IMG/VR virus record: IMGVR_UViG_3300027974_000021
Origin: a virus
Reading direction: 5' to 3' (one strand)
Length of the DNA stretch: 64,000 nt
Shown: positions 1 through 59,300 of the stretch, in pieces
Layout: each line of letters opens with the position of its first letter
Numbering within the stretch: the stretch's first letter is position 1
Notes under the pieces: model-generated
Database searches by the model: none
What the model saw: the letters and a program-made list of their open reading frames with translations, nothing else
Told to the model about the DNA's origin: nothing
Made by a program: the position numbers and the translations under genes

Positions 1-292
1 ATACGAGACTGTAGTTAGTTTCTTGGGAGAAAAACCTATTTGGGCACCGAAGTCAAAAATAGGACATACCCTTGCAGCTGCTGGAGTGTTAGAGTGTATA
101 TATGCGATTCTTTCAATGCAAAGAGGAATCATACCACATATACAAAATTTAAAAAGTGCTTTTTGTGACACTAAAAATATTTTAGTTCGCGAGAATTTAA
201 ATACTAACAAAAAAGTTTTGCGAACATTAAATAACTCATTCGGATTTGGGGGAAAATGTATGTCGCAAGTAATAGAGGTAAATAAAGAATGA
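1..292 (+). CDS. fabF: Beta-ketoacyl-ACP synthase (FabF/FabB type), C-terminal part; 5' end lies outside the window
   Basis: KSKIGHTLAAAG and NNSFGFGG motifs of the ketoacyl synthase C-terminal domain; reading frame is open to the left edge. Confidence 0.88.
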   Translation, partial: YETVVSFLGEKPIWAPKSKIGHTLAAAGVLECIYAILSMQRGIIPHIQNLKSAFCDTKNILVRENLNTNKKVLRTLNNSFGFGGKCMSQVIEVNKE

Positions 293-441
293 CAACAATA
301 ATACTTTTATCAATCGGTGTTATAATCGGTTGGACTTATAAGCCAGCATTTGCTGATAATTTTATAAACAAATCTAAAGAAATTTTAAGTGGTGTTTTAA
401 CTTACTTAAAAGCTCTTGTTAAAAAAGGAGACAATAAGTAA
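289..441 (+). CDS. Small putative membrane protein (50 aa, MTTIILLSIGVIIGWTYKP...), not in the ORF track
   Basis: ATGA overlap with the fabF stop; hydrophobic N-terminus; fills the gap to the next gene exactly. Confidence 0.65.
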   Translation: MTTIILLSIGVIIGWTYKPAFADNFINKSKEILSGVLTYLKALVKKGDNK

Positions 442-442
442 A

Positions 443-859
443 ATGGCACAAGTAGAAACAAACACAAAAACGGAATTGACAAATTCCAAGGAGATTCCCC
501 AACGTCAAACATCTTGGGGTTATCATTTAATTATTGATGCAGCAGGTTGCACTAAAAACTTTCAAGACCCAGTGGTTTTGAAAACTTTTTTAAATGACCT
601 TTTAGTTCGCATCGACATGAACGCATGGGGTGAGCCATGGATAACTCACTTTGCTGAAAAACCAGAGATCGCTGGATGGACAGTAATACAAGCATTGACT
701 ACAAGTTCATTAACAATACACTTTTTAGATAATAATGGTGATTGTTATTTTGACTTGTTCTCATGCAAAACTTTTGATATTGAAATGGTGAAAACTATGA
801 TAAAAGAATATTTTGATCCTATTTCAATGAAGGATCAATATTTTGTTAGACAAGCATAA
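443..859 (+). CDS. speD: Pyruvoyl-dependent decarboxylase of the S-adenosylmethionine decarboxylase (SpeD/SpeH) family; substrate uncertain
   Basis: GYHLIIDAAGC, LTTSSLTIHF (self-cleavage region), FDLFSCKTFD; AGGAG at ~426-430 favours ATG 443 over TTG 416. Confidence 0.8.
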   Translation: MAQVETNTKTELTNSKEIPQRQTSWGYHLIIDAAGCTKNFQDPVVLKTFLNDLLVRIDMNAWGEPWITHFAEKPEIAGWTVIQALTTSSLTIHFLDNNGDCYFDLFSCKTFDIEMVKTMIKEYFDPISMKDQYFVRQA

Positions 860-1328
860 TATAACACCAAAAGAAGCATTACAAGAGTGGTTGGCGAGAC
901 TTAAAATACCTCGCCAAGCACTTGATGGTCATTCTATATGTCCATTTAGTAAAGGAGTCAGTGTACCTACACCTGAAGACTTAAACATCGATAACTCTTT
1001 TCGTCCTCCTGCATTATGGGAGATTAAAAAAATTAAAATTTACAACATAATCAATCCGAATATTACACCAACAGAATTAGATGAATGGTGTGATTATTAC
1101 ATAAACAAATATGAAAATTATATGTTTATAGCAGACCATAAAGACAGAGATACACACATTAATGGAATTAAAACAAATAATGGTTATTTTAACTTTATGT
1201 TAGTTCAAAGTTTGCCTGAATTGAATGAAGCACGTAGAAATTTATTAAAAACAACCAACTATTATAGTTTCTGGGATCCTGAATATTTAAAAGATACTTG
1301 GAATAATAGTTTTGATAAAGAAGAATAA
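843..1328 (+). CDS. Hypothetical protein with a CPF motif (DUF1415-like N-terminus)
   Basis: LQEWL...ICPFSK pattern; overlaps the upstream gene and abuts the downstream one. Confidence 0.55.
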   Translation: MLDKHNITPKEALQEWLARLKIPRQALDGHSICPFSKGVSVPTPEDLNIDNSFRPPALWEIKKIKIYNIINPNITPTELDEWCDYYINKYENYMFIADHKDRDTHINGIKTNNGYFNFMLVQSLPELNEARRNLLKTTNYYSFWDPEYLKDTWNNSFDKEE

Positions 1329-1330
1329 TT

Positions 1331-2413
1331 ATGAGTGTTTGGACAGATTATGATCCGTTGAAAGAAATTATTATAGGAAGTATTCCTACACCTGAATACT
1401 TTTCAAACTTTCTAAAACCAGATATCCTAGAAGTCCTTACACCCATTATAAAAGAAACACATGAAGACTTAAACAAGTTTGCTAATATATGTATTTCTTT
1501 AGGAGTAAAAGTATATAGACCAAAAGTGTTAGACTTTCGTGAACCACTTAGACTTCCAGGATTTAAAATTAAGAATCCAATATCACCTTTAGTGCCAAGA
1601 GATAGTTATCTTGTTTATGGTAATACAATTTATTCTTCATATACTAGTATGGCTGATAGATGGTTAGAGTCATTATCATTCTACGATATCTTTATGGAAA
1701 AGTTTGTAGAAGGATATAATTGGTTATCAACACCAGTACCACAATTAAAAGACTTTAGACCTGACACTCAATGGTACACGCATGGTGGCGATCGTTATGG
1801 AGTAGAATTAAAAGATAAAATATTATGGCATTGTGCTACTATGTACAAATGTGGTGATAGTTTAATTATTAATTCTTCGGGTCCAGGAACTAAATTAGGA
1901 TATGACTGGATGCAACGTAATATACCTGATACTAAATTTATAAAGAATTCAAATAAGCCACACAAAGGATGGGGACATATAGATCAATTTTTCTTTCAAA
2001 CGGATGATAATACAGTATTTTGTACTAATAAAAATTATGTCCCAGATGTATTCCTAAATAATAGTAAGTTCAAAGTACATGAATTTGGTCACTTAATTAA
2101 AGATGTAGATATGAAACAATATGAACATCGTCTAGCACAAACAGATGGTAAATATAGTATTGAATGGATTGATGAGTGGATAGATGAATGGAGAGGTTTC
2201 GCACAAGAAGTAGCATTTGATAGTAATGTAGTTGTAGTTGATAGTAAAAATGTAATTGTCACTAATGAACAACCAGCATTATCAAATTGGTTTAAAGAAT
2301 TTGGTATAACACTACATCCTGTTAATTTAAGACAGGGTGGTTTTTGGGATGGTGGTGTTCACTGTTTATCGCTTGATATTAAAAGAGATGGAGAGAAAAG
2401 AAATATCGTATGA
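1331..2413 (+). CDS. Amidinotransferase (glycine/inosamine-phosphate amidinotransferase family, pentein fold)
   Basis: WTDYDPLKEIIIG start, PRD, GHID and the C-terminal catalytic GGVHCLSLD motif. Confidence 0.88.
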   Translation: MSVWTDYDPLKEIIIGSIPTPEYFSNFLKPDILEVLTPIIKETHEDLNKFANICISLGVKVYRPKVLDFREPLRLPGFKIKNPISPLVPRDSYLVYGNTIYSSYTSMADRWLESLSFYDIFMEKFVEGYNWLSTPVPQLKDFRPDTQWYTHGGDRYGVELKDKILWHCATMYKCGDSLIINSSGPGTKLGYDWMQRNIPDTKFIKNSNKPHKGWGHIDQFFFQTDDNTVFCTNKNYVPDVFLNNSKFKVHEFGHLIKDVDMKQYEHRLAQTDGKYSIEWIDEWIDEWRGFAQEVAFDSNVVVVDSKNVIVTNEQPALSNWFKEFGITLHPVNLRQGGFWDGGVHCLSLDIKRDGEKRNIV

Positions 2414-3408
2414 GAAAAATTTATAACTGGATTAATCCAACCTATTATGTAGATTATGATAAATTAAAGGATGTAATAGTTCCTTTGATGCAAGAAGATT
2501 TACGTGAATGGATGATTAACAATCCGATCGAAACAAGCACTGAGTGTGCTTATGCTCCACCAGAAGAAGTAGAAGAAAAGATATTATCCAAAAAAGAAGA
2601 GTTGAAGGCACATAAAAATCGAGCAATTGCTTATAAAGAAATTCTTACAGATGAAGCTGAAAGAAAACATTACAATGATTGGCGTTCTATTGATTTTCTT
2701 TATGAGTGTAAATGGAATAAAGAAGTTTTTAAAAGATCTTGGCAATTAATGTCTGAATGTAAAGGTATTAAACAAATCTTTATTAATTTTATAAAACCAA
2801 ATGGAATTATAACACCACATTTAGATACTTCTACTTGGGAAAAGATAGAAGAAGATTGGGGTTTGCCACTTTATTCATTAGAGGGTGGAAGTATTATTGC
2901 TACATTATTTACAGGTATGAAAAACAGAGAAGAAAAGACTGTTGGAATGAAAGTAAATGGTGTTTATAAGTTTCCATTAGCAGGAGAATTAGTTTGTTTT
3001 GATGGAAGATGGAATGAACATCAAATGTGGAACAACACAAACGAGTGGAGAATTACAGCAGTAATAGATATTGATAGAAAATACTTTACTCAAGTGTTAG
3101 AGGATGTTGATGAAGAAAAGAAAGAAATAAACAGACCAAAAGATAGTCTTACGATAACAGAAAATGCAACAATTAAATTTCAAAAATCTTTTAGTAAAGA
3201 AGAAGTAGAATATTATTTAAATCATGGTTTAACTGAAAAAATAGAATTTTTAAAAGAAAAAATACTTTGGTTGAATGAATATTCTGGGCGTAAAATATAC
3301 GCAGACCATTTAGATGAAATTTCAACAACAACTTTTTTAAATGCTAATATAACAAAAATAGATATATATTTTAAAAATTATAAGGAATATTATGTACATA
3401 GCACCTAA
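2410..3408 (+). CDS. AspH/LpxO-like 2OG-Fe(II) hydroxylase, paralog 1 (with ~100 aa C-terminal extension)
   Basis: FIKPNGIITPHLD ... CFDGRWNEHQMWNNTNEWRITAVIDID: HxD, distal His and 2OG-binding Arg. Confidence 0.82.
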   Translation: MRKIYNWINPTYYVDYDKLKDVIVPLMQEDLREWMINNPIETSTECAYAPPEEVEEKILSKKEELKAHKNRAIAYKEILTDEAERKHYNDWRSIDFLYECKWNKEVFKRSWQLMSECKGIKQIFINFIKPNGIITPHLDTSTWEKIEEDWGLPLYSLEGGSIIATLFTGMKNREEKTVGMKVNGVYKFPLAGELVCFDGRWNEHQMWNNTNEWRITAVIDIDRKYFTQVLEDVDEEKKEINRPKDSLTITENATIKFQKSFSKEEVEYYLNHGLTEKIEFLKEKILWLNEYSGRKIYADHLDEISTTTFLNANITKIDIYFKNYKEYYVHST

Positions 3409-4078
3409 TTCATATATTAATTATGTTCAATTATTAGATCATTATCCTAAATTAGTTGAGGATATGAATAAATGGCTTAATACACATACACCAGAAAGAG
3501 ATTCAATTGCTGTATATTCTGATGATCCTGCAAATAAGTTTTTGTCCACTACAACAAACTTTGTAGAAAGCTGGACAACTGAAGAAGAAAAGCAACATCG
3601 TTATGATTGGAAATCTATTCCTGTGTTTTTTGAAAAAGCGTGGAACACAAAAGACTTTCCTAGATTTTCAGAATTTGGTAAAGATTTAAAAGGATTGAGA
3701 CAATGTCTTATTAATTTTATTGCTCCACGTGGTAAAATTACAATACATAAAGATCACGACAATTGGGGTAAGATGACAGAAGATTGGGGATTTAAGTGTG
3801 AAGGATATTCATTAGTTGCTACTTTAAAAACAGGAATGAAAAAAGCTACAGATAAAACAGTAGGAACATGTATTAGAGATATTAAAACTGGAACTGACAC
3901 TTGGAGTTATGCATTAGTAAATGAATTTGTTTGTTTTGATGGATTAAATTATAACCATGCAATTACTAACAATACAGATGAATGGAGAATTTCAGCAGTA
4001 TTTGATATTGATAAAGAAAAATTTGATCCTAGTTTTGTTAAAACTGATAAACAAGTTTGTGATTATTATGTGGATTGA
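3392..4078 (+). CDS. AspH/LpxO-like 2OG-Fe(II) hydroxylase, paralog 2
   Basis: FIAPRGKITIHKD ... FDGLNYNHAITNNTDEWRISAVFDID. Confidence 0.82.
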   Translation: MYIAPNSYINYVQLLDHYPKLVEDMNKWLNTHTPERDSIAVYSDDPANKFLSTTTNFVESWTTEEEKQHRYDWKSIPVFFEKAWNTKDFPRFSEFGKDLKGLRQCLINFIAPRGKITIHKDHDNWGKMTEDWGFKCEGYSLVATLKTGMKKATDKTVGTCIRDIKTGTDTWSYALVNEFVCFDGLNYNHAITNNTDEWRISAVFDIDKEKFDPSFVKTDKQVCDYYVD

Positions 4079-4751
4079 TGTAAAAAGATATAAAGATTAT
4101 AAAAAATTATTTGATTATCAAAATATTTTAAATCTAGACATAAAAAACTGGTTAAAAAACAATGATCCTATAAAGAATACAGAACCAGTTTATGAAGAAA
4201 GAGCAAGTAGTCAAGAGTCATATGGGAAACTTAATCCTGATGGTACTATAACTTCTATCAGTTCGAAGTTTAGTGAACCACCAGCAGATCCTACAAAGAA
4301 TCCAGAAGAATACGCACACAGAAAAGATTGGAGATGCGTAGGTGGGTTTTATGAACGTACATGGAACACAAAAATAATAAAAGAATCATTAAAAGCTTTA
4401 ACTATGTTAAGTGGTTTAAAACAATTAAATATAAATTTTCTTTGTCCCTTTGGTAAAATAACTTCTCATTTAGACGATGGTGGGTGGAAAAAAATATCAG
4501 AAGATTGGGGTAAAGAAACTTACGGATATAGTATAGTACAAACAATTCAATCAGGTATGACTGAATCATCATCAGAGTTAGTTGGCATGCGTGTAAATGA
4601 TGTTGATAAATATCCATTAGTTGGAGAATTAGTTTGCTTTGATGGTATAAAAGGATTACATAGCATGTGGAATAATACAAATATATGGCGTATTACTGCT
4701 GTGTATGATATAGATATAAACGCATTTAATAAATATAGTATATGTGGATAG
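4068..4751 (+). CDS. AspH/LpxO-like 2OG-Fe(II) hydroxylase, paralog 3 (start corrected to MWIDVK)
   Basis: FLCPFGKITSHLD ... FDGIKGLHSMWNNTNIWRITAVYDID; N-terminus aligns with the paralogs from ATG 4068. Confidence 0.82.
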   Translation: MWIDVKRYKDYKKLFDYQNILNLDIKNWLKNNDPIKNTEPVYEERASSQESYGKLNPDGTITSISSKFSEPPADPTKNPEEYAHRKDWRCVGGFYERTWNTKIIKESLKALTMLSGLKQLNINFLCPFGKITSHLDDGGWKKISEDWGKETYGYSIVQTIQSGMTESSSELVGMRVNDVDKYPLVGELVCFDGIKGLHSMWNNTNIWRITAVYDIDINAFNKYSICG

Positions 4752-5329
4752 ACGCAACAAAATATAAACATTACGAAGTTCTTAAAACAAGTTTAATTCC
4801 TGCATTGGAGTTAGACTACAATAGATTCATTCGTAAATTTGATATTACAGAAACAGGTGTAAATGTATTTCGATTTGAATATCCTAATCGAGAAGACGAT
4901 CATGCTGATGATTGGTGGGCTATACCACTTATTCAAGGAGGTGAAGCAGTACCACCTTTAAGAAATCCATGGCAACATGCAACAGCAAGTTTAAAAGAAA
5001 TTCCTGGAGTATTTCAATCAATCGTAAATTTTATAAAACCAAATGGTGGATTGCCAATGCATCATGACTTTGGTAGTTGGCAAAGAATAGAAGAAGCATT
5101 AGGTTATCCAGTAAAAGGATATACAATAGCTATTGGTATTGACATGCCATCAAACGATCCGAATATTTGTGGTATGGAATTTGAAAATGATACTTTTCCA
5201 AGAACTTATGGAAATAAGGAAATAGTAGCATTTAATGGACGTGACTTTATGCATAAAGTATGGAATAAAACAGGAAATTGGCGTGTTTCTTGTGTAATTG
5301 ATACTGATATAAAGGATTGGAACAATTAA
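4742..5329 (+). CDS. AspH/LpxO-like 2OG-Fe(II) hydroxylase, paralog 4
   Basis: FIKPNGGLPMHHD ... FNGRDFMHKVWNKTGNWRVSCVID. Confidence 0.82.
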   Translation: MWIDATKYKHYEVLKTSLIPALELDYNRFIRKFDITETGVNVFRFEYPNREDDHADDWWAIPLIQGGEAVPPLRNPWQHATASLKEIPGVFQSIVNFIKPNGGLPMHHDFGSWQRIEEALGYPVKGYTIAIGIDMPSNDPNICGMEFENDTFPRTYGNKEIVAFNGRDFMHKVWNKTGNWRVSCVIDTDIKDWNN

Positions 5330-5334
5330 AACCC

Positions 5335-5363
5335 TTTACATACAATAAAAAATATAGTATAAT
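5335..5363 (+). promoter_or_regulatory. Sigma70-type (early) promoter TTTACA-N17-TATAAT
   Basis: TTTACA 5335-5340, 17-nt spacer, TATAAT 5358-5363; ATG 7 nt downstream. Confidence 0.75.
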
Positions 5364-5370
5364 ATAATCT

Positions 5371-5970
5371 ATGTGGCTTGGAAATCCTACATCTTATTCA
5401 AATTATAGTGCTTTAAGTGCTATGATGATTGCTTTAATGAGCGACTATGCTGAATGGCGAAGTCAAAGATCATTCGAAGATACAGTAAATGCTGACGATC
5501 GTTATTCTATGCCTATTAATAATAGAGGTGGGTTTAAAGCATTACCATTGATTGATGCTCGTAAAATAAACGAACAATTAGAAGATAGATATCTTTGGAA
5601 ACGTACTACTACTCAATTCTATAATATTCCTGGAGCAATAGACTTATGTGTCAATATGATACGTCCAGGAAAAATGTTGCCAGTACATCACGATGGTTAT
5701 GTTTGGGATTGGATACGTCAAAGTATGGGAGATCCTACAATTGAAGGATATACTGTAAGTTTTGGTATTGATATACCTGAACCTGAAAAGCAAGCATTAT
5801 TATTTGATGGTGAAAAGAAAATCTGGAAGACAGGTGAGTTTGTAGCATTTAACGGACACGATATTCAACACAGTTTAAAAAATGAAGCAACAAACCCAGA
5901 GCATTGGCGAGTGACGGCTGTAATGGAAATTGATAAAAAATATTTTAACAACTATTCTGTTGGTTTATGA
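5371..5970 (+). CDS. AspH/LpxO-like 2OG-Fe(II) hydroxylase, paralog 5
   Basis: MIRPGKMLPVHHD ... FNGHDIQHSLKN...WRVTAVMEID. Confidence 0.82.
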   Translation: MWLGNPTSYSNYSALSAMMIALMSDYAEWRSQRSFEDTVNADDRYSMPINNRGGFKALPLIDARKINEQLEDRYLWKRTTTQFYNIPGAIDLCVNMIRPGKMLPVHHDGYVWDWIRQSMGDPTIEGYTVSFGIDIPEPEKQALLFDGEKKIWKTGEFVAFNGHDIQHSLKNEATNPEHWRVTAVMEIDKKYFNNYSVGL

Positions 5971-6230
5971 GTTTAGATAACGATCAATTACAACAAGAAA
6001 TTTACGATGATATATTTAAGAATGCTATGGATCTTATAGTTAAACATTCAAGTAATTTAGAAGTTAATCAATTAGTTTCAAGTACGATGCTCGCAATAGC
6101 TATTCGTTTTTATAAATCAGCTTTAACTGATTTAGATTATCAAAAATTTTTAAATTCAATTATAGAAGTTGGACAAGAAGCAAGACCATTTGGTGTTGCT
6201 GAAATATTACCAAAAAGAAAATTGAATTAA
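5967..6230 (+). CDS. Hypothetical protein
   Basis: ATGA-coupled 87 aa ORF. Confidence 0.65.
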   Translation: MSLDNDQLQQEIYDDIFKNAMDLIVKHSSNLEVNQLVSSTMLAIAIRFYKSALTDLDYQKFLNSIIEVGQEARPFGVAEILPKRKLN

Positions 6231-6237
6231 CTAAATA
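6230..6237 (+). promoter_or_regulatory. Candidate T4-type late promoter (ACTAAATA)
   Basis: Variant of TATAAATA at an intergenic position; same octamer at 28917 and 45186. Confidence 0.4.
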
Positions 6238-6264
6238 GGTTTGCTTTTAACAGAGGAGGGTATT

Positions 6265-6369
6265 ATGACTCTTTTTGTTTATGAAGTAATAGTTCTTATT
6301 TTATCTGTTATTATGTTAGGAATATCTGTTTTTTATATGTTTAAAATTGACAAAGCAAAGAAAAAATAA
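6265..6369 (+). CDS. Small single-TM protein (34 aa, MTLFVYEVIVLILSVIMLGISVFYMFKIDKAKKK)
   Basis: Strong SD GAGGAGG immediately upstream; hydrophobic core with a basic tail. Confidence 0.65.
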   Translation: MTLFVYEVIVLILSVIMLGISVFYMFKIDKAKKK

Positions 6370-6384
6370 TTATTATTTTATACT

Positions 6385-6960
6385 ATGAATATCTTTTACT
6401 TAGATAAAAATCCTAAAATTTGTGCGACAATGCACTGCGATAAACATGTAGTCAAAATGATTATAGAGTATGCGCAGTTATTGTCAACTGCGCACCGAGT
6501 CCTAGACGGAACTTCAAACAACATCCTTACCAAATCAAAACGCAAATATACCACTTGGATTCATCCAACTCCATTAATGGAATCTACATTGTATAAATCT
6601 ACTATGAAGAATCATCCATCAGCTATATGGGTTCGTGAGAGTGTGTCACATTATGAGTATTTGAAAGAATTATGGAAACATTTATCAGACGAATATACTC
6701 ATCGTTATGGTAAGACACATAGCACTTATATCAAATTAAAAGATGTATTAAAATTAAATCCAATCAACATACCTAATATTCCATTCAAAGATCCACCACC
6801 AGCAATGAGTAATTTTCCATTATGTATTGTACCAAATAATAGTCTTTACTCTTATTATAATTATTACATAGTGGCAAAGAATTATTTTGCTAAATGGACT
6901 AATCGACCGATACCTGAATGGTACTCAACAGGGTTATCAACAAAGAAATTATATGCCTAA
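6385..6960 (+). CDS. Pyrimidine-dimer DNA glycosylase / DenV-related family protein
   Basis: MNIFYLD...HCDKHVVKMIIEYAQLLSTAHR and NHPSAIWVR motifs of this widespread phage family. Confidence 0.7.
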   Translation: MNIFYLDKNPKICATMHCDKHVVKMIIEYAQLLSTAHRVLDGTSNNILTKSKRKYTTWIHPTPLMESTLYKSTMKNHPSAIWVRESVSHYEYLKELWKHLSDEYTHRYGKTHSTYIKLKDVLKLNPINIPNIPFKDPPPAMSNFPLCIVPNNSLYSYYNYYIVAKNYFAKWTNRPIPEWYSTGLSTKKLYA

Positions 6961-7213
6961 TTATACATTTGAAAATAAAAAAACTAAAAAAGAATTTTCA
7001 TTAACAATGAAAATGGATGAACTTGAATTATATTTAAAAGCAAATCCAGATGTTCAACAAATATTTAATACATTTCCTGGAATTGCTGCACCATGGAACG
7101 TTGGAGGTGTGACTGGAAAAGCTACAAATGCAAAAAAAGGTTTTAAAGAGGTATTAAATAGAATACACAAACGTACTCCTGGAAGTCGTTTAAATAAAAC
7201 AACGGACATGTAA
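6953..7213 (+). CDS. Conserved T4-like hypothetical protein (FmdB-like N-terminus MPNYTFENK)
   Basis: MPxYxF start and GFKEVLNRIHK C-terminus typical of aquatic T4-like phages; start corrected to 6953. Confidence 0.65.
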   Translation: MPNYTFENKKTKKEFSLTMKMDELELYLKANPDVQQIFNTFPGIAAPWNVGGVTGKATNAKKGFKEVLNRIHKRTPGSRLNKTTDM

Positions 7214-7222
7214 GGATAAAAA

Positions 7223-7843
7223 ATGAGTATATTTACAGAAGAAAGATTAGGAAAAGCATTATATTTAACAGATGCAAATACATTAACCAATTGGTATAAT
7301 GCCTTACTCGATTCATTACCAGAAGATATGATTGAGAGTCCGAGTCGTATTGCTGGTTTCTTAGCACAAACATCACACGAGTCTGGTAAATATAAATTTT
7401 TAGCAGAAAATTTAAACTATTCTGATAAAGGTTTATTAAAAACATTCCCAAAATACTTTAATGAGAGTAATGTAATGGATTATGCTCGTAAGCCAGAAGC
7501 AATCGCAAATAGAGTTTATGCGAATCGTATGGGAAATGGTGATGAAGCATCAGGTGATGGTTGGAGATATTGTGGAAGAGGACTTATACAATTGACAGGT
7601 AAGAATAACTATCAAGCATTTGCTAATAGTGAACAAATGAATATAGAAGAAGTTCCTGATTATTTAATTACATATGTTGGTGCTGTAAGATCTGCTCTTT
7701 GGTTTTGGAATAAAAATAATTTAAATGACACAGCTGATCTCGGAGATTTACTAATGATGACAAAGAAAATAAATGGAGGAACACATGGACTTGCTGAAAG
7801 AACAGCTGAATACAAAAGAATCCTTGAAATATATTCAGCCTAG
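7223..7843 (+). CDS. Glycoside hydrolase family 19 endolysin
   Basis: FLAQTSHESG, ENLNYS, GDGWRYCGRGLIQLTGKNNY, INGGTHGLAER. Confidence 0.92.
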   Translation: MSIFTEERLGKALYLTDANTLTNWYNALLDSLPEDMIESPSRIAGFLAQTSHESGKYKFLAENLNYSDKGLLKTFPKYFNESNVMDYARKPEAIANRVYANRMGNGDEASGDGWRYCGRGLIQLTGKNNYQAFANSEQMNIEEVPDYLITYVGAVRSALWFWNKNNLNDTADLGDLLMMTKKINGGTHGLAERTAEYKRILEIYSA

Positions 7844-8525
7844 CAAAAGGTTCACTCATCTTTCAATTGAGTTTCCTAAGTTAGAAAGAATAGATTCTGC
7901 TGGGAGTAGAGTTTATAAAACACCAACAGGAAATCTATATCCTTCAGTGACAAGCATCACATCATTACAAAATAGATCAAGTATTATTGAATGGAGGACT
8001 AGAGTAGGAAATACTGAAGCAAATCGTATATCAAAACAAGCATCATCACGTGGTACTTTAATTCATAAATGGTCTGAAAAGTATTTACTTAATGATGGAT
8101 TTGAATATGATACAGAAGATTTAGTAGAAACAACTTTGTCTCAAGATTTTACTAATTTTATGCCAGTGTTAAATGAAATTGATAATATAATGGCACTTGA
8201 AACACCTTTATATTCTCATGAATTACAATGTGCTGGTACAGTTGATTGTATAGCTACATTTAAGAATAAAGTTTCTTTAATTGATTTTAAAACAGCATCA
8301 AGACCAAAAGAAAAGAAATGGATTCAAAACTACTTTATGCAAGCATCAGCATACGCACATATGTTTAAAGAATTAAAAGGACAACCTATACAACAAACTG
8401 TATTATTGTTTTTAGTAGATGGTGGTGAAACACAAATATTCACTGAGAATCCAAATAGTCATCTTGAGATGTTTAGATTTTATAGAGAACAATATAGAAA
8501 AGAAAATGAATTGGCAGTCGAATAA
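7773..8525 (+). CDS. PD-(D/E)XK exonuclease (T4-like phage exonuclease); true start probably somewhat downstream
   Basis: YPSVTSI, RGTLIH, AGTVDCIA, IDFKTA, YFMQASAYA. Confidence 0.85.
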   Translation: MEEHMDLLKEQLNTKESLKYIQPSKRFTHLSIEFPKLERIDSAGSRVYKTPTGNLYPSVTSITSLQNRSSIIEWRTRVGNTEANRISKQASSRGTLIHKWSEKYLLNDGFEYDTEDLVETTLSQDFTNFMPVLNEIDNIMALETPLYSHELQCAGTVDCIATFKNKVSLIDFKTASRPKEKKWIQNYFMQASAYAHMFKELKGQPIQQTVLLFLVDGGETQIFTENPNSHLEMFRFYREQYRKENELAVE

Positions 8526-8688
8526 AGGATTCGTCGCAAAAGAGTATAAAGCATTTGGTGAAAATGCATGGGGTCAAAAAGTATTTGTAATTAAGTATAA
8601 GGGATTTTCTAATGTCACAGTAGAGAATGATTTTAACCAATGGATAAAAGAAGTAGATGACCTCGCAATTGAAAAGAAAACAAAATAA
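8506..8688 (+). CDS. Hypothetical protein (60 aa, MNWQSNKGF...)
   Basis: ATG 8506 overlaps the exonuclease end. Confidence 0.55.
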   Translation: MNWQSNKGFVAKEYKAFGENAWGQKVFVIKYKGFSNVTVENDFNQWIKEVDDLAIEKKTK

Positions 8689-8729
8689 AACATTTAAATC
8701 TCCTTTTTTAAGTGGAAGTGATATGAAAC

Positions 8730-9950: not shown

Positions 9951-10432
9951 ACGATAAACAATCTGCAGAAAAAACTACATATTTTCAATCAGAAAATGAA
10001 ATACCTGATTGGTATATAAACTATGCTGAAGGAACACCTGCATTTGCAGAGTACTTTAAACTTCAACTTCTTAAATTTGAACAGTTTGAAGATCAATCAC
10101 TTTTAAACACTGTTGCTCTTACAGTTGCAACTGTAAACAATTCAAAAGATCTAATGCATGATATAAGTCAAACGATGTTTGATAGAAATTTCGTGTATAG
10201 TCGAGATATGGTAATGGGAGCAATCGCTGAGTGCTTAAATGACTATGCATTAATCGATAAGAATTATATACTAGGAGAAGATACCGATGAAGCGAGAGTT
10301 CGAATGACTGTTGCAATATTAAGAGGTATGCCTAAATCGTTATTCCTTGATTGGAACGAAACAAGAACAGAAGAAGAGCATAAAATACGTGCGATTATTG
10401 GTATAGTTGACGTTATAAGCAAAATCATCTAA
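9947..10432 (+). CDS. Hypothetical helical protein, weak AhpD-like resemblance
   Basis: ATGA-coupled to the aminotransferase; lacks CxxC. Confidence 0.55.
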   Translation: MNDKQSAEKTTYFQSENEIPDWYINYAEGTPAFAEYFKLQLLKFEQFEDQSLLNTVALTVATVNNSKDLMHDISQTMFDRNFVYSRDMVMGAIAECLNDYALIDKNYILGEDTDEARVRMTVAILRGMPKSLFLDWNETRTEEEHKIRAIIGIVDVISKII

Positions 10433-10494
10433 ACCACTCTCAAAACACGTTAAAATAGGTTTAAACCCTATTCTATAATGAGAGTGAACTATTC

Positions 10495-10507
10495 TAAACC
10501 ATTGATT
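10495..10507 (-). promoter_or_regulatory. IHF-consensus-like box (AATCAATGGTTTA on the minus strand)
   Basis: Exact WATCAANNNNTTR match ~40 nt upstream of an early promoter. Confidence 0.4.
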
Positions 10508-10545
10508 TATATAGCTTATTTTTTACTACCTTTGGTTTAAAAAGC

Positions 10546-10574: not shown

Positions 10575-10631
10575 ATACCTAAATAACATATAAGATTTGT
10601 TCTTATTCTTCTTCCCAAGAAGTTTAAGATT

Positions 10632-10979
10632 GTGAACTATATTGATGAAAAAACTATGAAGCCATATAATCGAAACTTTCGAAGCACAAAAGACTTCAAG
10701 TCAAACGACAAAAGAAATAGATTTGACTCGCCAAAGAAAACTTATTCAACACCTCATTACGAGCGTCCAAAAGAAACTGGTCTTGAAGTATTGGTTGAGA
10801 ATGATAATATTGAAAAGGCAATCCGAAGACTTAAAAAGAAAGTTGATCGCGAGGGTTTGATCCGTGAGATAAGAGATCGAGCCACTTATAGCAAACCATC
10901 AGAGAAACGTAAGATTGCAGCACAGAACGCAAGAGATCGTTGGCTGAAATATAAACGTGACCGAGATCGTTTGATTTAA
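10632..10979 (+). CDS. rpsU: Phage-encoded ribosomal protein bS21 with N-terminal extension (start GTG 10632 or ATG 10656)
   Basis: VLVENDNIEKAIRRLKKKVDREGLIREIRDRATYSKPSEKRK matches the S21 signature. Confidence 0.9.
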   Translation: MNYIDEKTMKPYNRNFRSTKDFKSNDKRNRFDSPKKTYSTPHYERPKETGLEVLVENDNIEKAIRRLKKKVDREGLIREIRDRATYSKPSEKRKIAAQNARDRWLKYKRDRDRLI

Positions 10980-11710: not shown

Positions 11711-11884
11711 ATGAAAAGAACTGCAATCTGCTCAATCTGCGGAATTACTGCATACGTTCCAATCTCAAGATCATTACTCGCACTCTTACAATTTAACTGT
11801 AATTCGAAGCATGCTGAAAGATTCGGAGTCTGTGAATTTAAGCTTACAAAGAAGACTCAGAAGAGAAAGGTTTCGGGCACCTAG
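11711..11884 (+). CDS. Small Cys-containing ORF (57 aa, CSIC...C...H...C), possible zinc binder
   Basis: Manual translation MKRTAICSICGITAYVP...; stop codon lies inside the tRNA-Val 5' end. Confidence 0.4.
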   Translation: MKRTAICSICGITAYVPISRSLLALLQFNCNSKHAERFGVCEFKLTKKTQKRKVSGT

Positions 11885-11949
11885 TTCATTGGTAGAACAC
11901 GTGGTCGACATCCACGGGGTGGCAGGTTCGATTCCTGCGGTGCCCACCA
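11875..11949 (+). tRNA. tRNA-Val(GAC), CCA encoded, C at position 33
   Basis: Acceptor GGGCACC/GGTGCCC, D-arm GTTC/GAAC, anticodon arm CGTGG-TCGACAT-CCACG, T-loop GGTTCGATTCC, ACCA end. Confidence 0.9.
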
Positions 11950-11950
11950 T

Positions 11951-12026
11951 GCCCTAATAGCTCAATTGGTAGAGCAACTGATTTGTAATCAGTAGGTTGG
12001 GAGTTCAAGTCTTCCTTAGGGCACCA
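11951..12026 (+). tRNA. tRNA-Thr(TGT), CCA encoded
   Basis: Acceptor GCCCTAA/TTAGGGC, anticodon arm ACTGA-TTTGTAA-TCAGT, T-loop GTTCAAGT, ACCA end. Confidence 0.93.
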
Positions 12027-51717: not shown

Positions 51718-51735
51718 AAGGAAAGAAATAATCCT

Positions 51736-52434
51736 ATGGCTTACTTGGGTAGAGATCCAATACATGGTAATTCTGAAATACAGGTGTTCGCTCCGAATGG
51801 AAATTCGACAACATTTGCTTTAGATTTTCCAATTGGTTCAGCAGGAAGTATTCTTTTAATTAAGAATGGTTTAATTCAAAAACCAAACACAGATTACACA
51901 ATTATAAATGGGGGCACTTCTATTTCAATAACAGGTGCTGCTCTTTCAGCAGGTGTTAGTCTATTCGCAATTTATCTTTCAACACAATATCTTCAAAATA
52001 CAATCCCTGATAATTCAATCAGTGCTAATAAACTTTCATCTTCATTAAGAGGTAAATTTCCTAGTGATGTTGTAGTTCCAGCAGGTGGTTCAACAGCACT
52101 TACTTATGGTGTTGGAAAATATTTCATTTTAGGGAATGATCTTAATTACAGTATAACATTACCAGCTTCTCCTGCGATTGGAGATATGTTTTGGATAAGT
52201 AGACCAGCAGGAAATGGAGTTGGTGCAATTACTGTGACTATCAATACAAATTCACAAAATTTATCAACTGGACAAGGTAGTATTGTCACACAAAATAGTG
52301 CTACTGCAACTATTTCATTAACAGGATCATCATCATTTACTTCAAATGATAGAAAAAATCGTTGGTTTGTGTTTGTAGGAGTAATTGGTGGTACAGATTT
52401 TGGTTGGTTTGAGTATAAAATTGATGCTTTTTAA
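51736..52434 (+). CDS. Short fibre / virion protein
   Basis: MAYLG start, NGNSTTFAL, ITLPASPAIGD. Confidence 0.68.
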   Translation: MAYLGRDPIHGNSEIQVFAPNGNSTTFALDFPIGSAGSILLIKNGLIQKPNTDYTIINGGTSISITGAALSAGVSLFAIYLSTQYLQNTIPDNSISANKLSSSLRGKFPSDVVVPAGGSTALTYGVGKYFILGNDLNYSITLPASPAIGDMFWISRPAGNGVGAITVTINTNSQNLSTGQGSIVTQNSATATISLTGSSSFTSNDRKNRWFVFVGVIGGTDFGWFEYKIDAF

Positions 52435-52446
52435 TTTTTAATTTTA

Positions 52447-52453
52447 ATAAATA
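52447..52453 (+). promoter_or_regulatory. Candidate late promoter ATAAATA
   Basis: Intergenic, upstream of 52464. Confidence 0.5.
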
Positions 52454-52463
52454 GGTATAAGAA

Positions 52464-52799
52464 ATGGCACAAATAACAGACTTTTTTATAGATCAAGGAT
52501 CAGATTGGTCTGCTGTTTTAACATTTAATAATACTGATGGAACACCAAGAGATTTTACAAATTGTACAGTTTCTGGGCAAATGCGAAAAGGTTATGGTTC
52601 AACGACTTATACTGCTATAACTGCTACATTTGTTGCTCCAAATTCAAGTGGAAAAGTTAAACTTGCCTTAGGAAATGCAACTTCAACAGCAATGAAAGCT
52701 GGAAGATATGTGTATGATGTTGAATTAATAGATTCATTCAGCTTAAGAAGTAGATTAGTTGAAGGAATTATAACAATAACACCAGAGGTCACAAGGTAA
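52464..52799 (+). CDS. Conserved virion structural protein
   Basis: IDQGSDW, QMRK, AGRYVYDVE, RLVEG.ITITPEVT. Confidence 0.75.
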   Translation: MAQITDFFIDQGSDWSAVLTFNNTDGTPRDFTNCTVSGQMRKGYGSTTYTAITATFVAPNSSGKVKLALGNATSTAMKAGRYVYDVELIDSFSLRSRLVEGIITITPEVTR

Positions 52800-53087
52800 A
52801 TGGCTGAAACATTAACTGTAAGTGTAGATTCACAAGGTAGTACGATTAGTCCGAGTAATACTACTCTGACAACTTCAACTACAACAGCAGGTGGTGGTTC
52901 AACAATTACGACAATAGGAATTCAAGGAGCATCAGGAGCAGTTGTTCCAATAAGTGAAAATGTTCAAGTTGATATAGTATCAGAGGGATTAAATAATGGT
53001 TCATTATTAGTTTATAAAACAAATACTTCGAAATGGACAGCAACTAAAACATTAGATCTACAAATAGTAGACAGTGGCGAATTTTAA
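52800..53087 (+). CDS. Small virion/fibre adaptor protein
   Basis: NGSLLVY...W, ends VDSGEF. Confidence 0.62.
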   Translation: MAETLTVSVDSQGSTISPSNTTLTTSTTTAGGGSTITTIGIQGASGAVVPISENVQVDIVSEGLNNGSLLVYKTNTSKWTATKTLDLQIVDSGEF

Positions 53088-53099
53088 TAGGAGAAAAAA

Positions 53100-55682
53100 A
53101 TGGCATCAATTATAAGAATTAAACGTTCAACGACAGCAGGTAATCCCGCAACACTTGCAGCAGGAGAACTTGCATATTCAGGTCTTACGGATAACGACTC
53201 CAATGGTGGTGATCGTCTCTACTTAGGACTTGGTACAGAAACAAACGGAAATGCTGCGAGTCACTTAGTTATAGGTGGAAAGTATTTTACAGATTTATTA
53301 GACCACACTCGTGGTACATTAACTGCATCATCTGCATTAATTACAGATTCAAATAGCAAACTTGACAATTTAAAAGTAGATAATTTAGATCTAAACGGAA
53401 ATACAATATCTTCTACAGATGCCAATGGAAATATTGTACTTGATCCGAATGGAACTGGTTATGTTTCAATTACTGGAACAAATGGACTTATAATTCCTGT
53501 TGGTACTACAGCTCAAAGAGCACCATCAGTACAAGGTGCAGTTCGTTATAATACAGATACATCTTCTTTCGAAGGATATACAGGATCAACTTGGGGATCA
53601 TTAGGTGGAGTTAAATCAGTTGATGGTTTAACGTACATTTCAGCTGAGAGTGCTCCAGGATCTTCTAATGACACACTTTCTTTTGTCACTGATGGTACTG
53701 AGAGAATGTCTCTTGATACTGACAGTTTAGATATTGCAGCTTCAATTTTAACAACAAATATTAATTCAACTTTAACTTCAACATCAACTTCAACTGGCGC
53801 ATTAGTTGTTGATGGTGGTGTTGGTATTGCTGAAAATTTATATGTTGGTGGTATAATCAATATTGATAATTTAAGATTAGATACAAATACATTATCATCT
53901 ACAAATTCAAATGGAAACATTACACTTGCTCCAAATGGAACAGGTGATGTTTATTTAGATGCAGATACAGTAAGAATTGGAGATAGTAATACGAATGCTA
54001 CTCTAACTACAAATGGAACAGGTGATTTAATTCTTAATACAAATTCTGGTACAAATACAGGTTCTATTACAATTGAAGATAATGTAAATGGTAATATAAC
54101 TTTATCACCAAATGGTACTGGTAAAACAGTTTTAAATAATCCATACATTAATGGTACAACAGACACTCTTGCTGAATTCATTTATGATACAGTAGGTGGT
54201 GCAGTCACTTCAGGAACTGGTATTACTGTCACAAATAGTGATGCAGGAAATAGTTCTACAATTAATATTACAAACACAGCTGTCACTGCTGGTTCTTATG
54301 GTTCAACTACAGCAATCCCTACATTTACAGTAAATGCACAAGGACAATTAACTGCTGCTAGTACAGAAAACATTTCAACTACATTAAATATTGCAGGTGA
54401 TACAGGAACAGATGCGATTGCTCATTTAATAGATACATTAACATTTACTGGTGGTGAAGGAATTGATACTGCTGTCACAAATAATGTATTAACAATTTCA
54501 GGAGAAGATGCTACAACTACTAATAAAGGTATCGCTTCTTTTGCTACTGCTAATTTTGATGTATCGTCTGGTGCAGTTTCTACAAAAAACATTACACTAG
54601 GAACATCAACTTTAACAAATGGTTCAACTACAAATTCTCTTGCTGGATTACAACAATTAGATGTAGATAATTTACAATTTAATGGTAATTCGATTATTTC
54701 AACAGACACTAATGGTGGTATTACACTTGATCCGAATGGAACAGGACACGTTTCAGTTAGCAGTGCATTAATTAAAGATGTTGCAACTCCAGTTGATCCA
54801 ACTGATGCTGCAAACAAAGCATATGTTGATGCTGTTGCTGAAGGATTACATATTCATGCTTCAGTACTAGCTGCAACAACAGCTGCACTTACTGGTTCTG
54901 TGACTTACGATAATGGTACATCAGGAGTGGGTGCTACATTAACTTTAGCAACACCAATTAACACATTAGATGGTTATTCATTAGTAAATGGTGATCGTAT
55001 ATTAATTAAAAACCAAGCAAACACTGCTCATAATGGTATCTATATTCGTACATCTTCAACAGTATTTACACGTGCTGCTGATTTTAACACAGTAGCTGAA
55101 ATTGCATCTGGTGACTTTTTATTCGTATCAAATGGTACAGTGAATGGAAAAACTGGTTGGGTAAATACAACTAAATCTATTGCTGTTGGTACAACTGCTG
55201 TTGTATTTGAACAATTTTCAGGAGCAGGAACTTATATTGCTGGTTCTGGATTAGCATTTACAGGAAATACAATTGATATCGTATTACAAACATCTGGTGG
55301 TCTAGAAATAGTTTCTGACGAATTAGGATTAAAATCTACAACTGCTGGAAGTGGTTTAACTTTCTCATCTGGTGTTCTTAATATAGGTGGAACTGCAGAT
55401 CGTATTACAGTTAATAATGATTCAATTGATATTGCTTCAACTTATGCTGGACAAAATACAATTACAACATTAGGAACAATTTCTACTGGTGCATGGCAAG
55501 GTACTACAATCGGCACAATTTATGGTGGTACAGGAAATACATCATATTCAATTGGTGACTTATTAGTTGGTGCTGCAGCAAATGCTTTAAATAAATTATC
55601 AATTGGTACGACTGGAAAAGTATTACAATCAAATGGAACGACTTTAGTGTATGATGATGTGGACGGAGGAACATACGCATAA
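53100..55682 (+). CDS. Tail fibre protein
   Basis: IIRIKRS..GELAY N-terminus, repeated NTISSTDxNGxIxLxPNGTG, DAANKAYVD, ends DGGTYA. Confidence 0.78.
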   Translation: MASIIRIKRSTTAGNPATLAAGELAYSGLTDNDSNGGDRLYLGLGTETNGNAASHLVIGGKYFTDLLDHTRGTLTASSALITDSNSKLDNLKVDNLDLNGNTISSTDANGNIVLDPNGTGYVSITGTNGLIIPVGTTAQRAPSVQGAVRYNTDTSSFEGYTGSTWGSLGGVKSVDGLTYISAESAPGSSNDTLSFVTDGTERMSLDTDSLDIAASILTTNINSTLTSTSTSTGALVVDGGVGIAENLYVGGIINIDNLRLDTNTLSSTNSNGNITLAPNGTGDVYLDADTVRIGDSNTNATLTTNGTGDLILNTNSGTNTGSITIEDNVNGNITLSPNGTGKTVLNNPYINGTTDTLAEFIYDTVGGAVTSGTGITVTNSDAGNSSTINITNTAVTAGSYGSTTAIPTFTVNAQGQLTAASTENISTTLNIAGDTGTDAIAHLIDTLTFTGGEGIDTAVTNNVLTISGEDATTTNKGIASFATANFDVSSGAVSTKNITLGTSTLTNGSTTNSLAGLQQLDVDNLQFNGNSIISTDTNGGITLDPNGTGHVSVSSALIKDVATPVDPTDAANKAYVDAVAEGLHIHASVLAATTAALTGSVTYDNGTSGVGATLTLATPINTLDGYSLVNGDRILIKNQANTAHNGIYIRTSSTVFTRAADFNTVAEIASGDFLFVSNGTVNGKTGWVNTTKSIAVGTTAVVFEQFSGAGTYIAGSGLAFTGNTIDIVLQTSGGLEIVSDELGLKSTTAGSGLTFSSGVLNIGGTADRITVNNDSIDIASTYAGQNTITTLGTISTGAWQGTTIGTIYGGTGNTSYSIGDLLVGAAANALNKLSIGTTGKVLQSNGTTLVYDDVDGGTYA

Positions 55683-55732
55683 TTGATATAATATCTTAGA
55701 TTATATAATCTACTAACAAATAGGAGACAAGT

Positions 55733-55921
55733 ATGGCTAAGAAGAAACAAGAAACTGTTTCAGATATTATTGATAGAATAGAAGAAGATTTGATGACTCT
55801 TCGTGATAAAGTTGAAGAACTTAAAAATCACGAGTGCGAGGAGGACGAAGATGACTCAGAAGAAGATACCGACTGGGATGAAGATTCTGACTCTACTAGC
55901 ACTGAGGAAGATGAAGAATAA
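55733..55921 (+). CDS. Small, very acidic protein (coiled coil + D/E tail)
   Basis: AGGAG SD; C-terminal half mostly Asp/Glu/Ser/Thr. Confidence 0.7.
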   Translation: MAKKKQETVSDIIDRIEEDLMTLRDKVEELKNHECEEDEDDSEEDTDWDEDSDSTSTEEDEE

Positions 55922-55958
55922 ACAAAATAAAAAAAAGAAAAAATAAGGAAACTAACTG

Positions 55959-56312
55959 ATGGCGACAATAATTAAATTAAAAGGTTCAGCAACTCCGAAT
56001 CTTGCGCCATCAGTTAATGATTTAAGTTATAAAGAAGTTGCTTTAAATTACGCAGACGGAAGATTATATTACAAAAACGCTGCAGGACAAATAGCATATT
56101 TTAGTGCTGATGTTGTAGGTGGTCAAGAAGGACAAGATGACGATCTATTTAATCAATTAGCGTTTGCAATTAAATTTGGTGCATTCCCTTTAGCTGATTA
56201 TGGTAATATAACTGACCCAACAAGTGATGCTTTTGGACAAGTAGTTTTATTTACTTACGATAATATGGCAACAGAGGGATTAAGACTTATTGACAACGAA
56301 GGATTAGTATAA
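55959..56312 (+). CDS. Small fibre-associated protein
   Basis: IIKLKGS..EVALNYADGRLYYKN N-terminal domain. Confidence 0.68.
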   Translation: MATIIKLKGSATPNLAPSVNDLSYKEVALNYADGRLYYKNAAGQIAYFSADVVGGQEGQDDDLFNQLAFAIKFGAFPLADYGNITDPTSDAFGQVVLFTYDNMATEGLRLIDNEGLV

Positions 56313-56313
56313 A

Positions 56314-59300
56314 ATGCCAACACAATTACAATTACGAAGAGGGACAACAAACCAACATAACACATTTACAGGTGTTGTTGGTGAAGTCACAATTAATACT
56401 ACAAAGAAAACAGCAGTCGTACATGATGGATCAACAGCAGGTGGTCTTGAATTACTTCGTGCTGATATGTCAAACGTATTCGCTTCAGCAACTCCAACAA
56501 TCACTTCTTTAAACACATCAGGTGACGTATCTGTAGGTGGTAATTTAACTGTCACTGGTACAACTACATTTAATGGTGGCACTATCACTATGGGTGATGC
56601 TGACACTGATAACGTTGTATTTGGTGCTGATGTAAATTCAAATATATTACCAAATACTGATAACACATACGCATTAGGTAGTTCATCTAAAAAATGGTCA
56701 GACGTTAGATCAGTTTTATTAACTACAACAGGTAATGCTACAATCGGTGGTGATGTAGCTGTCAATGGTGGCGATCTAACAACTTCTCAAACAACTTTCA
56801 ATTTATTAAACACAACAGCAACTACTTTAAACGTAGGTGGTGCAGCCACAACATTAGAAATTGGTGCTGCCACTGGTACAACTAACATCAATAACAACTT
56901 AGACGTAGATGGCGATGTTAACATTGATGGTGGTGACTTAACAGTATCAACTACTACATTTAATCTTGCTAATACAACTGCCACAACATTGAACGTTGGT
57001 GGTGCTGCTACATCTTTAAATCTTGGTGCTGGAACAGGTACTACAACAGTTAATAATAATTTAACAGTCACAGGTAATCTTACTGTTTCTGGTACAACAA
57101 CTACAGTAGATTCAACAACAATTAATGTTCAAAATGCTTTCGTATTTGAAGGTGCAACTGCTGATGGTTTTGAAACAACTTTAACAACAGTTGATCCAAC
57201 AGCAGACAGAACACTTTCTCTTCCAGACGCAACTGATACTTTAGTTGGTCGAGCAACAACAGACACATTATCAAATAAAACTTTTACTCTTGCTCAAAGT
57301 GGTGGTACAAGTGCATATGCAACTAAAAGAGTTTTACAATACAACGAAGGAACTGGAGTAATTACATATAGTAATAAATTAGATGCTGTAAGCCCATACA
57401 TTACAGGATATGGTTCAGAAATTCACGTTAGTCCAGTTGCTCTTGATAACACAGGTAATGGAACCATTGGCGATCCAGTTAAAACAATTGCTAAAGCATT
57501 AGAATTAGCTGCACTTGCTTTCGAAACAACTACTGCTGGCTCAAGAAAAACAATTATTCTACATCCAGGAGATTATGCAGAAAATGTCACACTTGATACT
57601 CAATATATTGTTTTAACCACACACGAGGCAATAGGCAAAAATACAACTCTTTCTGGCACATTAACTATTTCAAAAGGTTGTACTGTTAATGGACTGAAGA
57701 TGACAAATCTTATTATTTCAGCAACTTCAGCAACAGGCTCAGTTGATATTATTAATTGTACAGTGACAACAGCAACTACAAAAACATCAAGTGCATATAC
57801 AAATTTTAGATTATGCGATTTATCTTCATCTACATTAAGTATTACTGGTGCTGGCTCAGTCGTGCTGAATGGTGGTAATTATGGTACTGTCACTGTAAAT
57901 AATGCTTCTGCTGCAGTTTTGGCTAAAGCAGTTATTACAATGGCACCAGTGACTTTAACAGCAGGAACATTACAAATTGCTGACACAGTTATCTACTCTG
58001 CTACTAATACATCTAATGCTATAACACAAAGTGCTGGATCATTTTTAACATTAAACAATTGTCAAACATTAATACCTGATTTAACAAACGTAGCAAGAAA
58101 TAGTTTTGGTGGATATTATTCTATTCTTCATTCTGTTTATGATAAAGCAAACTCTACATTCGGTGGAACATCATTATCAGCAGTTTCATATAGTCAGTAT
58201 GTTAATGCTGATAGATTAACTCTAAATGGATCAACATCTGGTGCTACTATAATTAACGCAACTGCTTCTGCAGGAACTACTACATTAACACTTCCAGCTG
58301 CAACTGACACTTTAGTTGGAAAAGCTACAACAGACACATTGACCAACAAGACCATCGACGCCAACGGCACGGGCAATTCCATTTCAAACATAGAAGTGGC
58401 GGACTTTGCCGCTGGAGTTATCGACACTGACCTTGCCTCGGTGTCCGCGAGCGATGACACATTGCCCTCTGCCAAGGCAGTCAAGGCCTACATCGACGCA
58501 CAGAACACAGCACAAGCGATTACATTTGTTGGAGATGACTCAACAGGAACCTCAGTAAACTCTGGAGAGATATTCAAGATAGCGGGCACAAGCAACATCA
58601 CAACTGCAGTATCAGGAGATACTTTAACCATCACAGGACCAAATTTAAGTGCATATCTAACCAATTCCACAATCACAGTGGTAGGTGATGACTCCACAGG
58701 CACCACTCTTAATTCAGGAGAAACATTCAAAATTGCTGGTACTCAGAACATAACCACAGCAGTGTCTGGAGACACTTTAACTATCACAGGTCCCAATCTG
58801 TCAGGTTATCTAACTGCTGTACCTAAAATTATTGACATCAATGAGATATCATCATCTGATTCATCTGCCATACAGATCAATGATGCTGTAAACATTGCTG
58901 GTGCATTGAGTGTGAGTGGCAATGTTATTTCAAATGTACAAAATCCAATAGCGGATCAAGATGCTGCAACCAAGAATTATGTGGATAATCAAATTTCTGG
59001 TGTGTCCACTTCATTCTATGTGGAAGATGGTACATCTACTATTGCCACAATAGACTCAGGAGACACTCTAAGAATCATTGGATCAGGCGGAATTACCACA
59101 GCAGTATCAGGAGATACCCTAACTATTACTGGTGCTAATCAAGCACAGGGTATTACATTCTTTGATTCTGCTTCTACAAGTACAGCAATACCCGATGGAG
59201 GCGCCCTACAAATTACCAGCGGAGAGGGTATCAGCACTTCTATCCTAGGAAATGTGATAACTATAACAAATACTTCGACGCAGCTGGAAATTGATGGCGG

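Follow-up and report, generated by a model that had tools for sequence, protein, structure and literature searches.

Complete loss of GTWAC and other short palindromes from the backbone of an uncultured T4-like freshwater myophage points to escape from host Type II restriction

The restriction enzymes MaeIII, Tsp45I and HpyCH4III cut GTNAC, GTSAC and ACNGT, respectively. A survey documented complete elimination of sites in roughly one phage genome in ten and linked it mostly to orthodox Type II systems (Rusinov et al. 2018, PMC6286503). The word GTWAC, in which W stands for A or T, is a methylated motif in marine metagenome-assembled genomes (MAGs) and was reported to be unmatched in REBASE (Hiraoka et al. 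2022, PMC8919816). Here we describe the absence of GTWAC (GTAAC and GTTAC) from most of a stretch of 64,000 nucleotides of the IMG/VR record IMGVR_UViG_3300027974_000021, which we call the window. It covers the baseplate and tail region of a T4-like myophage from freshwater that has not been cultured, and avoidance of host Type II restriction is, with good probability, the best explanation for its sequence.

The locus resembles the described cases in several respects. As in the phages of the survey cited above, short palindromic words of the Type II kind are fully lost by synonymous change and in a lineage-specific manner from a lytic-type double-stranded DNA phage; unlike in those phages, the main words lack a known enzyme, and survival of sites depends on the flanking bases. 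The motif of the marine MAGs is the same 5-mer and also comes from aquatic microbes, which means that proteins of GTWAC specificity exist in nature. That report differs in being marine and in concerning methylation only, with no nuclease shown and no MAG named for the motif in the main text. The sites of MaeIII, Tsp45I and HpyCH4III are likewise five-base palindromes with a degenerate centre and overlap the avoided words, but the window avoids just the W half of GTNAC and just the S half (S, G or C) of ACNGT. The mechanism is of a known type, namely restriction-site avoidance, while GTWAC as a specificity is uncharacterised.

Exact counting found no GTAAC or GTTAC in positions 1-59599. The earliest site lies at 59600, in line with the original prediction, which had been made by eye, and 15 sites are located in 59600-64000. 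For 1-59599, base composition leads to an expectation of 121 sites and a maximal-order Markov model to 78. As a further null we used 300 synonymous shuffles within each of 59 non-overlapping open reading frames (ORFs) in 1-58340. They yielded 104.0 +/- 6.3 sites with a minimum of 88, close to the rough earlier estimate of about 100 in 58 kb, and none was observed. This codon-shuffle null is conservative, because the codon usage which it preserves was itself already shaped by avoidance. GTWAC takes rank 1 among the depleted 4-6-mers under the composition and Markov models and stands at the top of the depletion ranking under all three nulls. The absence spans all reading frames and both strands, the motif set being its own reverse complement. 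The depletion is real and extreme, and lower-order composition is very unlikely to be its cause.

In each of the three reading frames, the recoding behind this absence consists of synonymous changes only. Valine is encoded by GTT or GTA in 86% of cases overall, but in none of the 77 cases in which threonine follows; there, 40 GTC and 37 GTG codons are used, so that the switch described in the original prediction holds for every pair. The use of AAT and TAT, which it had described after GGT, is found after all codons ending in GT, with a ratio of 59:0 for asparagine (AAT) and 44:0 for tyrosine (TAT). Leucine in the context xxG-Leu-Cxx is never TTA (0 of 10), although TTA makes up 60% of the leucine codons elsewhere. 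At 26 orthologous positions at which relatives have kept GTWAC, the window carries GTSAC in 13 cases.

GTSAC is indeed abundant in 1-58340 (102 observed versus 41 expected from the codon shuffle). The further claim drawn from this, that the target is specifically GTWAC and not GTNAC, does not follow. Since Val-Thr is always encoded by GTNAC, every recoded Val-Thr pair becomes GTSAC, and the roughly 66 conversions imposed in this way are enough to explain the excess of 61. The excess is therefore silent on whether the enzyme tolerates GTSAC, which might also be shielded by a thymine modification. The Val-Thr dipeptide has an observed/expected ratio (O/E) of 0.77, an effect too weak to decide on a GTNAC pressure. 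The enzyme may recognise either GTWAC or GTNAC.

The only two tRNA genes of the window, as detected by ARAGORN, have one base between them:

11875-11949, plus strand, tRNA-Val(GAC)
11951-12026, plus strand, tRNA-Thr(TGT)

In the window, 40 of 79 GTC codons fall in the forced Val-Thr context, and tRNA-Val(GAC) may possibly compensate for the avoidance. Compensation is not needed to explain this tRNA, because G34 reads the common GTT codon too.

GTWAC is not the only word concerned. The fingerprint had been described around a single motif, whereas at least eight motifs are avoided, and ACSGT, CTATAG, GTTAAC, GTATAC and GCSGC had been missed. GGCC and CCGG, which had been noticed as absent, occur for the first time at 58485 and 59430, respectively; for 1-58340 the codon shuffle led to expectations of 6.6 and 15.8 sites. 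With the same codon-shuffle null as used for GTWAC, the following counts were obtained:

ACSGT, 0 observed versus 43 expected
CTATAG, 0 observed versus 17 expected
CCGG, 0 observed versus 15.6 expected
GTTAAC, 1 observed versus 14.5 expected
GTATAC, 1 observed versus 11.7 expected
GCSGC, 0 observed versus 7.7 expected
GGCC, 0 observed versus 6.4 expected

Every strongly avoided word is a short palindrome of the kind typical of Type IIP sites. GATC, GANTC, CATG, TCGA and TGCA are near expectation in the window. To our knowledge, no restriction enzyme has been characterised for GTWAC, ACSGT or CTATAG. In a separate observation, the dipeptide Gly-Pro is present in the window proteins of 1-57260 at 0.30 of expectation (14 versus 47), while Pro-Gly is at 0.71. 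Since Gly-Pro is always encoded by GGNCC, site avoidance may extend to the amino-acid level.

The depletion is shared by close relatives, a comparison which the original prediction had proposed as a check. We use the name lineage A for about 45 IMG/VR fragments from many lake metagenomes, with 77-99% gp6 identity or approximately 76-95% nucleotide identity. Its fragments have 0-1 GTWAC per 5-22 kb, no ACSGT or CCGG in any case, and never more than a single GGCC each. Two intermediate sub-clades show partial GTWAC depletion (L014-L017, and L078-L082 together with L004, L005 and L025), and one lineage A sub-clade retains about 40% of the expected sites. Fragments at 38-46% gp6 identity show no depletion, and the cultured phages HTVC008M, Mosig and Melnitz have 125-197 GTWAC per 50 kb, which is at or above expectation. 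These three phages (L137, L138 and L139; 50 kb each) strongly avoid GATC, with 28, 6 and 9 sites versus about 150 expected, and HTVC008M avoids GANTC as well (15 versus 79-159). All six GATC sites remaining in Mosig sit in GGATCC.

The loss of GTWAC has also occurred elsewhere. In the unrelated phage G007 (IMGVR_UViG_3300007514_000009, L145+L124+L146+L147; 59 kb, GC 0.49) there is no GTWAC versus 75 expected, while GTSAC is normal. Thus, GTWAC avoidance is heritable, lineage-specific and recurrent, each lineage having its own fingerprint, and such a trait fits selection by restriction and not composition. As a side observation, zero counts were also obtained in G007 for AGCT (155 expected), GTAC (132), CTAG (126), GTAGA/TCTAC (70), CCWGG (67) and GGWCC (61), and GATC and CATG are merely halved.

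The window encodes a T4-like gene set comprising gp32, gp33, gp2, gp4, the baseplate hub (gp48/54), gp5 lysozyme, gp6 and gp8, and in addition giant virion proteins, tail fibres with Mtd_N heads, a SpeD/SpeH-type decarboxylase and a class-III aminotransferase; several ORFs are without family match. The following features are of importance here:

1-57260, lineage A backbone of a T4-like freshwater myophage, GC about 0.32, with GTWAC, ACSGT, CCGG, GGCC, GCSGC and CTATAG all at 0
2410-3408, match to the Asp/Asn hydroxylase family
7773-8525, PD-(D/E)XK protein, a member of a broad phage exonuclease family
10632-10979, ribosomal protein S21, a hallmark of pelagimyophages

Among cultured phages, Methylophilales phage Melnitz and the Pelagibacter phages HTVC008M and Mosig come closest, with gp6 identities of about 41%, and a megablast search with 20 kb of the window against cultured phages gave no match. 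On the basis of gene content and habitat, the phage probably belongs to the published "fonsimyophage" group PMP-D, freshwater pelagimyophages which were assigned to Ca. Fonsibacter via tRNA similarity (Zaragoza-Solas et al. 2020, PMC7029224). It shares with this group the Great Lakes-type metagenome habitat, a GC content of about 31%, T4-like synteny and the genes for S21, Asp/Asn hydroxylases and speH, and a 2OGFeDO gene is present in a relative, the contig G002 described below. This likeness is one of gene content and habitat, and the PMP-D paper, unlike the present analysis, is silent on site avoidance.

We suggest that lineage A has been selected to lose every short palindrome which Type II restriction endonucleases of its host would cut and which the phage could not otherwise protect. 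GTWAC would dominate among them, since without the purge no other such word would be as common in AT-rich coding DNA. Sites would have been lost singly by synonymous change, GTW-ACN turning into GTS-ACN and xGT-WAC into xGT-WAT, with TTA being avoided between G and C. To the right, the GTWAC-free stretch would end where the fibre module of a non-avoiding lineage joins. Of the long-term selection by a host defence proposed in the original prediction, the strong sequence-specific selection stands, being synonymous, shared by relatives and bound to a lineage; a restriction enzyme of the host as the selecting agent is what we infer.

Several points weigh against this explanation. A scan for the gp6 protein in 185,579 species genomes revealed no relative, and an exact 38-nucleotide piece of the phage tRNA-Thr had no match in the same genomes. 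The tRNA-based host call for PMP-D was not reproduced in this way, and neither scan tied a host genome, a restriction-modification gene or a methylome to the phage. Should the host be Ca. Fonsibacter (LD12), in agreement with the PMP-D publication, it would belong to the streamlined oligotrophs, which are said to carry few defence systems (PMC12143481). Further, the tail-fibre module of the very same record holds 15 GTWAC sites, and if its join to the backbone is real, the phage is currently unprotected against a GTWAC enzyme. Should restriction be the cause nevertheless, widespread restriction activity on GTWAC, ACSGT and CTATAG, for which no enzyme is characterised, is predicted for aquatic habitats, and heavy restriction pressure would act on phages whose assigned hosts, of the SAR11 type, are believed to spend little on defence.

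The strongest alternative concerns not the selecting agent but the origin of the split between W and S. It proposes that the host enzymes are N-degenerate (GTNAC, as for MaeIII, and ACNGT, GCNGC and CCNGG) and that the phage glucosylates 5-hydroxymethyl-uracil made from T before G or C. Sites with such an internal T would be protected, as GTSAC, or ACWGT on one strand only, whereas the unprotectable GTWAC, ACSGT and GCSGC would be purged. The split would then mirror the modification context of the phage and not enzyme specificity, and GTWAC would be the unshieldable half of GTNAC. We regard this as a tentative possibility, somewhat less likely than its absence.

The alternative derives from a flank rule. 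CCWGG is at expectation in the window (36 versus 36), yet 35 of the 36 sites are TCCWGGA (9.9 expected), and ACCWGG is missing (0 versus 28). In Pro-Gly pairs the glycine codon is GGA in 33 of 33 cases, although GGT is the commonest glycine codon, and in 32 of the 33 pairs the preceding codon has T as its last base (xxT-CCW-GGA). For Pro-Gly there is no way around CCWGG, since the alternative CCSGG includes the forbidden CCGG. In lineage A as a whole, TCCWGGA makes up 256 of 282 CCWGG sites, as compared to 22 of 164 in distant relatives. CGCG and GCGC without a flanking T are absent from the window (0 versus 15 expected), and GCWGC without a flanking T is reduced (7 versus 25).

Similar flanks surround the sites left in G002, a lineage A contig of 69.5 kb with 92% nucleotide identity to window positions 34550-57119. 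Its 15 remaining GTWAC sites are without exception TGTWACA, for which the 7-mer expectation is 15.8, while about 120 expected sites with other flanks are absent; for comparison, GTSAC is flanked by T and A in 18% of cases. Common to all tolerated flanks is a T followed by G or C. Of 23 palindromes which contain G or C but lack an internal T[GC] step, 8 have an O/E of at most 0.09, and no other palindromes are so low; of those with a T[GC] step on both strands, 0 of 32 fall below an O/E of 0.27 (Mann-Whitney p = 7e-5).

A candidate for the modifying machinery is also found in G002, and this gene lies outside the window. Directly after the gp41 helicase gene, G002 encodes a Tet_JBP dioxygenase (PF12851, 84-87 bits). 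The next ORF encodes a protein of 334 amino acids without Pfam match, whose structural model (pLDDT 93.7) has T4 beta-glucosyltransferase (BGT) as top PDB matches (1j39 and 1bgt; TM 0.67-0.69; E = 2e-9), so that the adjoining gene is predicted to be BGT-like. No C5-methylase was found in five lineage A fragments, which, like the T-flank footprints, hints indirectly at T and not 5mC as the substrate. In this part of G002 (L143 12652-15986), the Tet_JBP and BGT-like genes are followed by two small ORFs (149 and 196 amino acids) without Pfam match.

Phage T-dioxygenases (5mYOX) have been described which act after replication in NTC and NTG contexts and modify 25-35% of T (published 2026, PMC13229309). 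Like these enzymes, trypanosome base J and T4 BGT, the lineage A relative combines a Tet_JBP gene with a subsequent BGT-like fold. For this phage, unlike 5mYOX and base J, it is a prediction whether T or 5mC serves as substrate, which product arises and in which context; the link to avoidance is drawn from the sequence. Together, the flank pattern and the Tet/JBP-BGT pair suggest a partial, context-specific thymine modification which would shield some of the sites.

Other observations speak against such a shield. TGTWACA is also gone from the window itself (0 versus 16), and ACSGT is missing in every context, including those in which G or C comes after its last T. A strand-specific form of the shield, in which the flanking T should lie on the GCWGC strand lacking the central T, failed, since either flank serves. 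Among HTVC008M, Mosig, Melnitz, G007 and L131, a Tet_JBP gene was present in Melnitz only, and Melnitz has no T..A rule; the gene alone therefore does not predict the footprint. G007 avoids GTWAC and not GTSAC with no Tet_JBP gene in its 59 kb (56% complete). Moreover, the Tet/JBP gene was seen in a relative and not in the window, and the modified base is a proposal from base patterns. A conceivable, but rather doubtful, reading takes the pattern of avoided words as the negative of a context-specific, base-J-like glucosylation of T before G or C, with every site that contains or adjoins such a T being shielded and just the others deleted. If this were true, the modification context and the restriction repertoire of the host would be readable from sequence alone, and the shielding would have arisen in a phage whose host, a freshwater oligotroph with a streamlined genome, is believed to have no defences of this kind.

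Turning from the shield to explanations without host restriction, the phage could encode a GTWAC nuclease without a methylase, use it on host or rival DNA and keep itself free of its own target. Several ORFs of the window without family match could hide such a protein. The PD-(D/E)XK protein belongs to the exonuclease family mentioned above, and no restriction-type nuclease was found by Pfam and PHROGs among a subset of ORFs of the window and of the 69.5 kb of G002. The avoided palindromes number at least eight, 15 sites persist in G002 and about 40% of the expectation in another sub-clade, and the tail-fibre module of the record has 15 sites as well. We consider a phage nuclease very improbable. 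Still less credible is a non-selective cause, i.e. mutational bias, lower-order composition or avoidance of a functional signal containing GTWAC: the GTTA/TAAC tetramers are low too (449 versus 641 expected), but this deficit is what a purge of the 5-mer would itself produce, even the Markov and codon-shuffle nulls leave an expectation of 78-104 sites, the absence extends to all frames and both strands, and related AT-rich phages show an excess of GTWAC.

Returning to avoidance of host restriction, the right end of the GTWAC-free stretch needs a separate explanation. The original prediction gave the stretch as 1-58340. Its right limit is a mosaic joint inside a tail-fibre gene and not an edge of the phage:

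56314-59361, plus strand, tail-fibre gene, 1015 amino acids, Mtd_N N-terminus (Pfam), which holds the mosaic joint as well as the jump in GC content near 58340
57260-58349, plus strand, tail-fibre shaft module, common to lineage A (L051, L092), lineage B (L131, L052) and other lake phages (blastn, sliding identity)
58350-64000, plus strand, lineage-B tail-fibre module, GC 0.39-0.50, with 15 GTWAC, 7 GGCC and 7 CCGG, 93% identity to L131

In the GC profile, the GC content rises from 0.34 to 0.48 at about 58340 within the tail-fibre gene. L051 of lineage A is 91.5% identical to the window up to exactly 58349 and then diverges, and L092 diverges at the same point. L131 and L052, which are from other metagenomes, match from 57300 through the GC jump to about 58660 with 97-100% identity, and beyond this L131 remains 93% identical as far as the window extends. 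The lineage B fragments L130-L135 are T4-like myophages too, encoding gp15, neck proteins, gp1 and gp18, with a GC content of 0.36-0.44 and a normal GTWAC density. Many lake phages swap C-termini at the same point, 58349. As judged from these alignments, the window is lineage A joined to a lineage-B fibre module, with the switch somewhere inside 57260-58349.

The joint goes back to a natural exchange of very recent date or is a chimera of the assembly, and we lean towards a natural recombinant. No amelioration of the B module is seen, as it has 15 GTWAC compared to 12-21 in five fully or nearly fully covering relatives and 9 in the shorter L136. The lack of site loss fits a very recent exchange and a chimera alike. 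If real, a GTWAC-rich fibre module in a GTWAC-free genome would record a recent swap of a host-range module.

Two further observations were made in this region. The shaft module at 57260-58349 is shared with 77-100% nucleotide identity by many lake phages that otherwise differ from one another (L051, L092, L131, L052 and L053-L064), and contigs of 104-357 kb are among those that carry it. In the adjoining part of the B module, 58341-61021 contains one GTWAC versus about 6 expected, while the following 3 kb has 14, and the lineage-B relatives are equally uneven.

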